From Alphaproteobacteria bacterium (GTDB lineage: Bacteria; Pseudomonadota; Alphaproteobacteria; SP197), in NCBI GenBank assembly GCA_965228895.1, contig OZ245842.1, positions 4,800,001-4,864,000 on the forward strand: a stretch of DNA of 64,000 bases. Reading direction: 5' to 3'. The position numbers and the translations under genes are program-made. Shown here piece after piece: positions 7,462 through 8,841 of the stretch (position 1 is the stretch's first letter; each line of letters starts with the position of its first letter). The notes below the pieces were generated by a model, which was not told where the DNA came from, did no database searches, and worked only from the letters and a program-made list of their open reading frames with translations.

Positions 7462-8841
7462 CTACTCAAGTACCGGATGGGTTCCGACAGGTCCGTCGTC
7501 GGGTGCCGTCTCGTCGCGGTCCAGTTCCCGCCAATTGATCTTTGACTTGGATCGATCAGGTTGACCGTCGACGAGAGTGATGAACCCTGTTACGAGCCAC
7601 AATCTGCTGCTCTGGGTTCGAAACGGTTTGGCCAAATCGTAGACTTCGAGATCGCGCAAATCGCTGGCCGTAACGTTTGGCAATTTCAATGAGAGAGTCG
7701 ATACCCAGCCAGCCAAGCCGAAATCGTCTTCAAAATCGTAACGTTCGTCAAAACGCATATCGACCCGGCCCGCCACATAGATGACATCGCCTCGACGGGT
7801 GAACGACAGGTTTCCATAATCTTTGATCGCTGCCGCACCGAAGGCCGCTATGAAGTCACGTTCAAACCTCGTGACGGCCGGTGTTTCATCTCTCTTGCTA
7901 GCCAGAGAGAACACATTGGGTTTCCAAACTGCGTCCCAACGGACCCGGCTGCTACTTCCATCGGTCCCCAGCTTTATCGTTTCTCCGTCCTGCAACCTCA
8001 AAAACGGTTCGCCAAACACATCGTCGTGCGTTGCTCCCAAAAACCAGTTCTCATAGTGATTTCGAACAGTCTTCTCTGCAGATCGAAACAGCGAGAACCC
8101 ACGCAATAGGGACCATGGCATCGTGTATGTGCCTCCCTCGTTCTTGACGTAGCGATCGAGGAACTCACTTGACAAGATGAAGCCATCGTCTCGCCCAATC
8201 TCAACTATCTCTTTGACGGCATTGATAGTTTCCTCCAACTCCTCGCGCAGCTTGGGATCGTCAGGCGACCTTTGCTTATCTTCCAGGAGCATGTCTTCGA
8301 CAGTTTCACGCAACCGATCGAACGACACAGTCGGCAAGCCAGCTGCAGGACGAGTGCTGACCCGACGCGTTGCCGACAACGGCTGGTCAGCGGACGACGA
8401 CACTTTCCGTTGTCGAACAGGCGACGGCTTACCGCCCCGTCTGTTGGCATCGGCCAAAGTCGGTGTGGCGTCATCCGATGGCTCGCCCAACCTCCTGCGC
8501 CCCCCACCCGTCAAGATTGTGCCCTGCCGCACCGGCGGCGCCTCCTTCTCCTGCCCGAGGCGCAGGCGGCGTTCGCGGGCGGGGTCGAAGGGTTCGAGTT
8601 CGTCGACGAAGGGTTTGGGGCGGCCGATGCGCAAGGGCTTCGGCTTGCCGCTGGGGTCGTCGTAGACGCGGCGGAACTGGCGGTGGATGTAGGCGCGGTA
8701 GTCGGGGTCGCCGTCCAGATAGCGGGCGTCGCGCATGAGGTGCGCGAGCTGGCCGCTGAGGCGCTTCTCGATTTCGTCCTCGATATCTTCCCGGGTCTTG
8801 GCGCGCGGCCGGCGTTTCAGCGGATCGTCACGTTGCGGCAT
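7462..8841 (-). CDS. Lead protein of locus 1: conserved N-terminal module + linker + putative colicin-M-like toxin domain
   Basis: 459-aa ORF with GGAG RBS; homologous at both ends to 27199-28437; toxin call is inferred from motif pattern and gene context. Confidence 0.65.
   Translation of the reverse strand: MPQRDDPLKRRPRAKTREDIEDEIEKRLSGQLAHLMRDARYLDGDPDYRAYIHRQFRRVYDDPSGKPKPLRIGRPKPFVDELEPFDPARERRLRLGQEKEAPPVRQGTILTGGGRRRLGEPSDDATPTLADANRRGGKPSPVRQRKVSSSADQPLSATRRVSTRPAAGLPTVSFDRLRETVEDMLLEDKQRSPDDPKLREELEETINAVKEIVEIGRDDGFILSSEFLDRYVKNEGGTYTMPWSLLRGFSLFRSAEKTVRNHYENWFLGATHDDVFGEPFLRLQDGETIKLGTDGSSSRVRWDAVWKPNVFSLASKRDETPAVTRFERDFIAAFGAAAIKDYGNLSFTRRGDVIYVAGRVDMRFDERYDFEDDFGLAGWVSTLSLKLPNVTASDLRDLEVYDLAKPFRTQSSRLWLVTGFITLVDGQPDRSKSKINWRELDRDETAPDDGPVGTHPVLE

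Follow-up and report, generated by a model that had tools for sequence, protein, structure and literature searches.

According to the part of PMC5644958 devoted to SaPI1, a terminal segment of the scaffolding protein binds the N-terminal arm of the capsid protein in the phages studied, and the SaPI1 protein CpmB pirates that segment, sharing only the C-terminal tail with the scaffold of phage 80alpha and binding the capsid protein in the same way. For bacteriocins of the colicin M (ColM) family, the signature DxYDx5HR and its degenerate variants DxFKx5R and HxYDx5FK have been described in the main text of a 2018 survey, in which, supplements apart, the term "alphaproteobacteria" is absent (PMC5821083). 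Polymorphic toxins are classed by the N-terminal module that decides their route of travel, and a module drawn from the capsid-binding end of a scaffold is apparently undescribed. The present analysis concerns a window of 64 kb (G000:C1:4800001-4864000; positions below are counted from its first letter unless a contig or locus is named) in a single-contig alphaproteobacterial genome of 5.53 Mb with a completeness of 98.7%. Two genes of this window, here called lead gene 1 and lead gene 2, encode proteins in which an N-terminal module resembling the tail of a phage scaffolding protein precedes a toxin-like domain. A reading of the sequence alone (the original prediction) had flagged this module in lead gene 1 as a possible tag for loading a toxin into phage capsids.

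The N-Terminal Module and T7-Type Scaffold Tails

The N-terminal motif is carried by both lead proteins, and the original prediction had located its core exactly, at 8662-8739 (residues 35-60 of lead 1, LMRDARYLDGDPDYRAYIHRQFRRVY) and at 28258-28335 (residues 35-60 of lead 2, LMTDERNQKNDPDYRHFVQRQYRRVY). It is kept in 12 family members as L..LM.D.RY..GDPDY..Y..RQFRRVYDDPSG.P..LRIGRP..FV..LEPFD..RERR, with D38, R40, D45, Q55, R58, V59, Y60, L70, G73, P75, E83 and F85 invariant or nearly so. The two lead proteins are 34% identical over their full length (BLASTP E 2e-63), the N-terminal 97 or so residues being conserved best, and a third paralog (lead 3) is present in the same genome at G000:C1:1037401-1038663. 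Judged from these sequences, the common motif of the paralogs is a matter of homology and not of chance. The open reading frame (ORF) of lead 2 spans 27199-28644 on the reverse strand and extends upstream beyond the ATG at 28437, which is where both the paralog and the family alignments start.

At the sequence level the module has significant similarity to the tail at the very C-terminus of T7-type scaffolding proteins (PF05396, T7 capsid assembly protein), and the likeness put forward by the original prediction is real. Comparison by hhalign of the module alignment (A2) with that of 20 alphaproteobacterial scaffolds (A3) gave a probability of 96.2% and an E value of 2.5e-9 over 39 columns, with module columns 34-72 paired with positions 147-186 of the 188 in the scaffold profile. 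A hidden Markov model (HMM) built only from the C-terminal 45 residues of each of the 20 scaffolds ranked the three paralogs first to third among 78,293 ORFs, which are all six-frame ORFs of at least 40 residues in this genome; the E values were 1.6e-4, 0.018 (lead 2, rank 2) and 0.53, and each match lay at the expected position. The module profile conversely matched the 3' ends of PF05396 genes in two genomes (G034 and G041). Among 24,736 Pfam families, PF05396 was matched by six of the nine N-terminal family pieces, with a best E value of 0.0017. In two whole family proteins the match was restricted to profile positions 158/159-187 of 188, and its scores of 15.5 and 15.8 bits lie under the PF05396 gathering score of 27.1, so that the domain as a whole is not recognized; lead 1 itself had no PF05396 match in the Pfam scan. 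When 1.84 billion representatives were searched exhaustively with the profile, no scaffold was returned at E<=0.001; for a search of 1.8 billion proteins the tail is too short. Sequence searches of the PDB gave nothing for T7 gp9 or for the whole family, and a best E value of 0.5 for the module.

On the scaffold side, PF05396 genes were found in 39 of the 301 sampled genomes of the class. Seventeen of the 20 scaffolds extracted end in ...L..MM.DP(R/K)YW...DP..V..V..GF..LY(P), while those of L021, L023 and L029 are more divergent, and the scaffold ending "lmrDPRYw..rDP.f...V..gf..ly" that the original prediction had cited is therefore an actual feature of alphaproteobacterial PF05396 proteins. 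Its attribution to podovirus-like prophages likewise holds, since in two genomes a portal gene is followed by the scaffold gene, and this by the genes for the major head protein (phrog_3437 / PF19821) and the tail tube, by which the tail-bearing scaffolds belong to podovirus-type prophages. The C-terminus of T7 gp9 contains MSDPRYRTDANYRRQVEQKV and reads MIKAMSDPRYRTDANYRRQVEQKVIDSNF to the end. In a joint alignment the shared segment is interrupted by one single-residue gap, one divergent scaffold apart, and the module displays the conserved terminal tail motif (DPRYW..DP..V..GF..LY). The 45-residue, tail-only profile (A7) matched 47 of the 301 genomes, against 39 for PF05396; the extra case that was read (G258) is a scaffold-like protein that is PF05396-negative at E<=0.001.

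An AlphaFold2 model of lead 1, made with the family alignment as input, has a mean predicted local distance difference test (pLDDT) score of 68. In this model a hairpin with helices at residues 17-36, 39-42 and 46-60 (block pLDDT 78-86) is followed by a conserved, mostly non-helical stretch up to residue 97. The helical hairpin predicted for residues 25-62 or thereabouts is, by sequence comparison, homologous to the final 35 or so residues of the scaffolds, a homology from which it follows that the hairpin was probably taken from a phage scaffold. The extension behind it is specific to the family, with P75, E83 and F85 invariant; the scaffolds lack it, stopping after F..LY(P). It is common to two further proteins carrying the module, P0030 and P0022, and is loosely matched by the tail-tagged proteins G070b and G041x. 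Weak structural matches of residues 19-98 to the N4 portal (Z 3.4-3.5) were set aside as ordinary helical-hairpin noise.

Distribution and Modular Use of the Tag

A search with lead 1 over 8000 scored candidates from a set of 5.8 billion proteins yielded ten related proteins at E<=0.001, lead 1 included, all of them unnamed. The module profile matched 21 proteins at E<=0.001 in the exhaustive search, N-terminally in nearly all; one of the 21, P0028 (1088 residues), was rejected as spurious, its match falling on an Ig-like repeat. Among 61 related genomes, nine were matched at E<=0.01, of which three matches are weak (those to the PF05396 genes of G034 and G041 are two of the weak ones) and six are true carriers of the toxin family (G000-G003, G025 and G028), all within one bacterial family. 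The loci L011 (G028) and L012 (G003) are possible pseudogenes or assembly errors. As whole proteins, the lead proteins belong to no family in Pfam, PHROGs, NCBIfam or PADLOC, and at E<=1 they match neither MuF nor any other Pfam family except, weakly, DUF7563. A tblastn search of 50,697 phage records with the module gave noise alone (E 3-7, five records), and no relative was found when IMG/VR was scanned with the module profile.

The tag is also found in front of other proteins. In P0030 (378 residues) a very scaffold-like version, LVRDPRYWKTRDPAFLGHVTRQFERVYG, which by a count made by hand is identical to one scaffold tail at 18 of 28 residues, precedes a different C-terminal domain, which is found again in P0033, there attached to an unrelated N-terminus. 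Viral and metagenome scans and the protein atlas gave nothing on the genomic context of P0030. A 61-residue ORF in G049 (L014:965-1150, reverse strand) consists of a P0030-like N-terminal module alone (LLTDPLYSVRSDNEFRNFVTRQFDRVFGTDPG) and is probably a truncated relative.

Most matches of the tail-only profile are scaffold-sized frames or contig ends, many of them PF05396 genes. In five genomes (G041, G070, G158, G159 and G269) it matched near the N-terminus of long non-scaffold proteins with other C-terminal domains: a protein of 490 residues followed by two tandem paralogs (G041x); tagged copies in G070, three intact and one broken, that all combine a PG_binding_1 domain with a coiled-coil end and lie among orphan C-terminal fragments; a tail-tagged protein of 540 residues (G158x); two tagged copies in G159; and one in G269. 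The occurrence of the tail on varied proteins and in varied positions indicates that it is a reusable unit, and very different tagged proteins retain the invariant scaffold residues (L, D, Y, D and F, mostly also P and W), which fits continued selection on the same surface. One module with alternative C-terminal domains (ColM-like and P0030-type) and immunity-like genes directly downstream is, as read from the sequences, the organization of a polymorphic toxin, in which the tag is a swappable N-terminal module on toxin-like proteins.

Some further arrangements of the tail were observed. In six of the 47 genomes a second tail match lies within about 1 kb of the first (G158:C12, G311:C1, G118:C1, G283:C1, G287:C1 and G123:C37), and ORFs of 106 residues (G158y, beside the scaffold, L052:2985-3302) and 124 residues (G103, separate, L057:1234-1605) end in the same tail. 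The G070 array (L049, G070:C1:1903000-1922999) contains three tail-tagged proteins with PG_binding_1 and coiled-coil ends, a broken one among them, and these alternate with orphan C-terminal fragments of 162 residues and with proteins of 363 residues that have a hydrophobic, signal-peptide-like N-terminus. In L042 (G129:C1:1524000-1543999) a T7-type portal and scaffold are followed, in place of a capsid gene, by five paralogs of 341-439 residues, four of which pass the PG_binding_1 threshold, and a gene for an S24 LexA-like repressor lies upstream; the locus looks like a remnant head module turned polymorphic locus.

The Predicted Toxin Domain

Structure searches with the lead 1 model's C-terminal domain pointed to the ColM fold. 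With Foldseek against the PDB, ranks 1-5 and 7 were occupied by PaeM, pectocin M2, colicin M and pectocin M1 (E 4e-3 to 6e-2) and rank 6 by the BtpeA C-terminal domain, from a type VI secretion system effector, while syringacin M was also matched, the range of E values reaching 0.1. With VIA-align, against 48,161 representative chains, the first four ranks were pectocin M1 (Z 7.2, root-mean-square deviation (rmsd) 6.2 over 148 aligned residues), the BtpeA C-terminal domain (Z 7.0), syringacin M (Z 6.0) and PaeM (Z 5.8); their rmsd ranged from 4.5 to 6.4 A over 148-195 aligned residues, and colicin M itself stood at rank 25 (Z 4.8). A ColM-type fold is thus likely for this domain and, since the Z values are middling, not proven. 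The position at which the ColM signature starts is occupied in the family by [DE]x[YF][DNKV]F (lead 1: DERYDFED), and the HR that completes the signature is lacking. By its modeled fold the domain would be a candidate lipid II hydrolase of the ColM type.

In a comparison of the lead model with BFVD, the best viral match was a 668-residue "Tail protein" of an uncultured member of the Caudovirales (A0A8S5UBA3), with an E value of 4.9e-5 over 354 columns and an rmsd of 21.9. On the basis of the models, a fold similar to that of the lead protein may occur in phage virion proteins.

SOS-Type Boxes and Putative Immunity Genes

The SOS box of Caulobacter is given as GTTCN7GTTC in Table 1 of PMC9578287. 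Four exact boxes of this type occur in the window (2.4 expected), and two of the four lie just upstream of the lead genes (Table 1), both of which are preceded by what is, by sequence, a putative alphaproteobacterial LexA (SOS) operator. The SOS signal invoked by the original prediction accordingly has a candidate site at either gene. Upstream of the third paralog (L003, about 1410-1424) the sequence GAACAGGAGGTGAAT has one mismatch to an SOS-type box, and in a three-way alignment of the upstream regions of the paralogs little was conserved beyond the SOS box.

Downstream, four immunity-like genes follow lead 1, two follow lead 2 and one partial ORF follows lead 3. These paralogs share 24 invariant columns, including two cysteines and G.G.WP, and have hydrophobic N-terminal helices and a soluble domain; the copy made up of two overlapping ORFs may be frameshifted or fused. 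The immunity-like proteins have no Pfam or PADLOC family, and a model of one of them (pLDDT 69) had no Foldseek match to a solved structure at E<=0.001, which leaves a Cmi-like fold no more than possible. As putative membrane-anchored immunity proteins they recall Cmi and PmiB as presented in the sections of PMC8469651 on these two proteins. Taken together, the tag protein, the SOS box and the arrays of putative immunity genes have the layout of an SOS-controlled, colicin M-like bacteriocin.

The GC content of lead gene 1 is 58.5%, against 63.3% for the window, and both islets lie below the GC content of their surroundings. Read from their translations, the flanking genes include NUDIX, macro-domain, Rieske oxygenase and peptidase-like genes, and no prophage was seen at the flanks of the window loci.

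Table 1. Positions of the lead genes, their predicted parts and the neighboring elements within the window.
Feature	Position	Strand	Description	Basis
Lead gene 1	7462..8841	-	459 residues: tag, linker, then toxin-like domain	Translation
N-terminal module of lead 1	8542..8841	-	Residues 1-100 (flagged as 8541-8841)	Alignment A2, 9 members, mean column identity 63%
Scaffold-tail-like helical hairpin	8638..8754	-	Residues 30-68, as aligned by hhalign	hhalign, Pfam, AlphaFold2
Family-specific extension	8551..8655	-	Residues 63-97, DDPSG.P..LRIGRP..FV..LEPFD..RERRLRLG	Alignments
Predicted disordered linker	8269..8532	-	Residues 104-191, about 90 residues	pLDDT <50; columns gappy and variable in alignment A1
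C-terminal domain	7516..8268	-	Residues 192-442, likely colicin M-like fold	Structure searches; block pLDDT mostly 75-94
SOS-type box of lead gene 1	8859..8873	-	Exact GAAC-N7-GAAC (GTTC-N7-GTTC on +)	18-32 nt upstream of the lead 1 ATG
Immunity-like membrane protein	6670..7437	-	255 residues, first of a tandem array	Paralog alignment
Immunity-like paralog	5878..6669	-	263 residues	Paralog alignment
Immunity-like paralog	4527..5785	-	Two overlapping ORFs (4527-5483, 5288-5785)	4527-5264 aligned
Immunity-like paralog	3705..4511	-	268 residues	Paralog alignment
Lead gene 2	27199..28437	-	412 residues from the ATG at 28437; architecture as lead 1
N-terminal module of lead 2	28138..28437	-	Tail-like part about 28234-28350
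SOS-type box of lead gene 2	28461..28475	-	Exact GAAC-N7-GAAC	24-38 nt upstream of the lead 2 ATG
Immunity-like membrane protein	26513..27196	-	227 residues	AlphaFold2, mean pLDDT 69
Immunity-like paralog	25813..26496	-	227 residues	63% identical to its neighbor

Possible Roles of the Module

In the reading that we tentatively favor, the flagged stretch would serve for targeting at the N-terminus of a polymorphic toxin that is colicin M-like and has an SOS box before its gene; the extension and the disordered linker of about 90 residues join the hairpin to the toxic domain. The hairpin would keep the role of the scaffold tail, binding the major capsid protein at its inner face, and the toxin would in this way be tethered to, or enclosed in, the procapsids that a T7-like phage forms while it multiplies in the producer. 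The capsid would be supplied by a superinfecting T7-like phage, and would have to be, because no such phage is resident. Two outcomes are conceivable: the cargo could reach the next cell's periplasm, the compartment in which a lipid II hydrolase would be active, or the assembly of the phage could be sabotaged. The succession of a tag, a long disordered linker and a folded cargo fits a tethered cargo. A tag of scaffold origin that docks on the capsid protein and needs a foreign T7-like phage is nonetheless a possibility held at rather less than even chances. It is unlikely, though conceivable, that such envelope-targeting host toxins of marine Alphaproteobacteria are actually enclosed in T7-like phage heads by means of the pirated tail and that the phage ejects the colicin M-like hydrolase into the periplasm of whichever cell it attacks next.

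Several observations weigh against docking on a phage capsid. For a colicin-type toxin, SOS control and lysis-dependent release suffice without any capsid. Profile searches of this genome, in which T7-type portal and capsid were sought, found no match to PF05396, phrog_3437 or PF12236, the searches with the last two being weak when taken alone in that control genomes also lacked a match; tblastn queries from three prophages (portal, scaffold, capsid and tail proteins) reached a best E value of 0.093. The cluster of scaffold and capsid genes ending in the motif, for which the original prediction had suggested a search of the rest of the genome, was not found. The other carriers were searched for PF05396, and with this genome included none of the six has such a scaffold, contrary to the co-occurrence of capsid genes with the family that loading into a resident capsid would entail. 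Of the 33 genomes of the bacterial family, only G010 has PF05396, and it lacks the toxin. When all tail-tagged proteins are considered, a resident PF05396 gene is present in three of 11 genomes (G041, G070 and G158, with T7-like prophages) and absent from G159, G269 and the six carriers; against the base rate of 39 in 301, this excess is not convincing and is suggestive at most. At least 591 IMG/VR contigs have the tail motif; in the 80 best of these, all 80 tail-bearing ORFs have the tail C-terminally, and none of the 80 contigs has an N-terminally tagged long ORF. Sixteen profile matches that seemed non-terminal were second domain matches within the scaffold ORFs already counted. Neither window copy retains the tryptophan that is invariant in scaffold tails, and lead 1 also lacks P20. 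Finally, the assignment of coat binding to the tail of T7-type scaffolds is an analogy to P22 and 80alpha; no gp9 chain was found among PDB structures, and a literature search gave no statement of which part of gp9 binds gp10. In a nine-sequence alignment of T7-type capsid proteins, the N-terminal 25 or so residues contain the invariant F9, F13, V17, Y21, Q22 and G25, and by the same analogy we infer that this would correspond to the place where the scaffolds of P22 and 80alpha bind.

Nearly as likely as the favored reading, and somewhat more doubtful, is a module for import that has no need of a capsid. On this account the protein would be a bacteriocin of the ColM type, made under SOS control and released by the lysis of some cells, for instance via the resident prophage; the N-terminal module and linker would form its receptor-binding and translocation part, and scaffold homology would be the mere evolutionary source of the hairpin. 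This account agrees with the ColM-like C-terminal fold, with the SOS boxes and with the membrane immunity-like genes, whose products have two invariant cysteines, as do Cmi and PmiB. ColM is described, in the part of PMC8469651 dealing with its release, as SOS-controlled, without a lysis gene and with an unknown release route, and the main text of PMC5821083 presents ColM-type toxins as polymorphic, with N-terminal receptor-binding domains that are varied and mostly unannotated. The import account also requires no resident capsid and so fits the eight of 11 genomes without a PF05396 gene. It offers no reason, though, for a scaffold tail to bind an import component of the cell surface or periplasm; the disorder sits between tag and toxin and not at the extreme N-terminus, and the scaffold-consensus residues are kept in distant tagged proteins. 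The lack of export genes, which the original prediction had taken to be explained by capsid loading, is no puzzle in itself, because ColM, by the same part of PMC8469651, is SOS-controlled and has no known lysis or export gene.

As originally proposed, the tag would load the toxin into resident prophage or phage-derived capsids induced by the same SOS signal in the same cell. The tail homology and the SOS boxes are in line with this, G041, G070 and G158, which have tail-tagged proteins, carry T7-like prophages, and the genome itself has a prophage-like stretch of about 37 kb at 2.575-2.612 Mb, with low GC content (55-60%), genes almost all on one strand and the one terminase detected in the genome. 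Ten proteins from the first 20 kb of this stretch (L046, 2,575,001-2,595,000) were scanned; its products include the terminase, a portal weakly similar to phrog_332, a major head protein (phrog_1357), an amidase-like virion protein and a scaffold-like protein of 198 residues (P0032). P0032 was rejected as a model for the tag, as it lacks the tail, ends in ...RDWKLKHGGF and gave hhalign E values of 0.24 against the module and 0.16 against the scaffolds. The prophage capsid is of a different family (phrog_1357 / PF25209-like), has no BLASTP similarity to PF19821 capsids and was found, among the bacterial family's 33 genomes, in this one alone, against six with the toxin family. A profile search of this genome found no PF05065 capsid, and hence no particle of the RcGTA type, and the lead genes do not lie between portal and major capsid genes. 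With T7-type scaffold, portal and capsid all missing here and the prophage's scaffold-like protein and capsid unrelated, packaging into a resident capsid is very improbable. What stands of the idea that the toxin mimics a scaffold for packaging is the tail homology and the modular tag; what does not is a resident capsid to load into. Judged from the sequences, capsid loading is not shown, and for a resident capsid it is not supported. Least credible of all is that the scaffold-tail likeness reflects chance, or convergence of a short helical motif, with no biological meaning. The shared segment does measure about 35 residues, single-sequence Pfam scores are 15-16 bits against a threshold of 27.1, and the exhaustive profile search had no scaffold at E<=0.001. 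Such a coincidence would have to account, however, for the hhalign E value of 2.5e-9 and for ranks 1-3 of 78,293 ORFs with a profile made from scaffolds only. It would also have to explain why six of nine members single out one of 24,736 Pfam families, both of those with known coordinates at its last 30 or so positions, and why 18 of 28 residues in P0030 are identical to those of one scaffold tail.

Implications and Comparison with Described Systems

Full-text literature searches turned up no account of toxins with an N-terminal module of the scaffold-tail kind, though supplementary files might list related domains. If the tag docks on T7-type capsids, it would connect warfare by bacteriocins with lytic podoviruses, a group abundant in the sea, as carriers or as victims of sabotage, and would represent a natural encapsulation tag of 35 residues for such capsids. 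The virion would then be a toxin-delivery vehicle or a booby-trapped particle, with transfer of the toxin without a secretion system. If it does not dock, the family would still be, to our awareness, the first candidate for alphaproteobacterial colicin M-like bacteriocins, with an import module that is unexplained.

Among described systems, the MuF toxins, as treated in the part of Jamet et al. (2017; PMC5576092) on these proteins, are likewise polymorphic toxins with a conserved N-terminal module associated with the phage head, for which the capsid has been proposed as vehicle. MuF is a large portal-associated domain whose genes lie inside prophages (same part of PMC5576092), whereas the lead proteins have a tail of about 35 residues and no MuF domain, their genes lie outside prophages and no matching capsid is resident. 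The T7-type scaffold (PF05396) shares with them the segment of about 35 residues, L..(L/M)M.DPRY(W)...DP.(Y/F)...(V/I)...F.R.Y, ungapped but for one residue. There the tail is the extreme C-terminus of a protein of 220-340 residues encoded between portal and capsid genes; in the lead proteins the segment lies near the N-terminus of a toxin-like protein whose gene sits in a small islet of the chromosome, no other part of the scaffold is matched and an extension of 35 residues has been added.

The ColM-type bacteriocins differ from the lead family in that the latter has no sequence match to any PDB chain, Z values of 5-7.5, a signature that is half present and no TonB box that could be seen. The likeness lies in the C-terminal domain, of which ColM, PaeM, syringacin M, pectocins M1 and M2 and BtpeA are the best structural matches and which is itself C-terminal, in an adjacent membrane-bound immunity-like gene, in SOS-type control and in the lack of an export gene. 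Varied N-terminal modules are a further common trait, the pectocins having borrowed a ferredoxin domain, as set out in PMC5821083 and PMC8469651. The closest precedent for the borrowed tail is SaPI1 CpmB, as described in the corresponding part of PMC5644958. There the tail is C-terminal and belongs to an alternative scaffold that resizes capsids and has no toxin, and its binding was established by cryo-electron microscopy and genetics, while docking of the lead proteins is a prediction. In CpmB, nevertheless, a protein other than a phage scaffold, equipped with the terminal capsid-binding tail of a scaffold, docks on the capsid of a helper (PMC5644958), and this is the mechanism that the lead proteins would follow.

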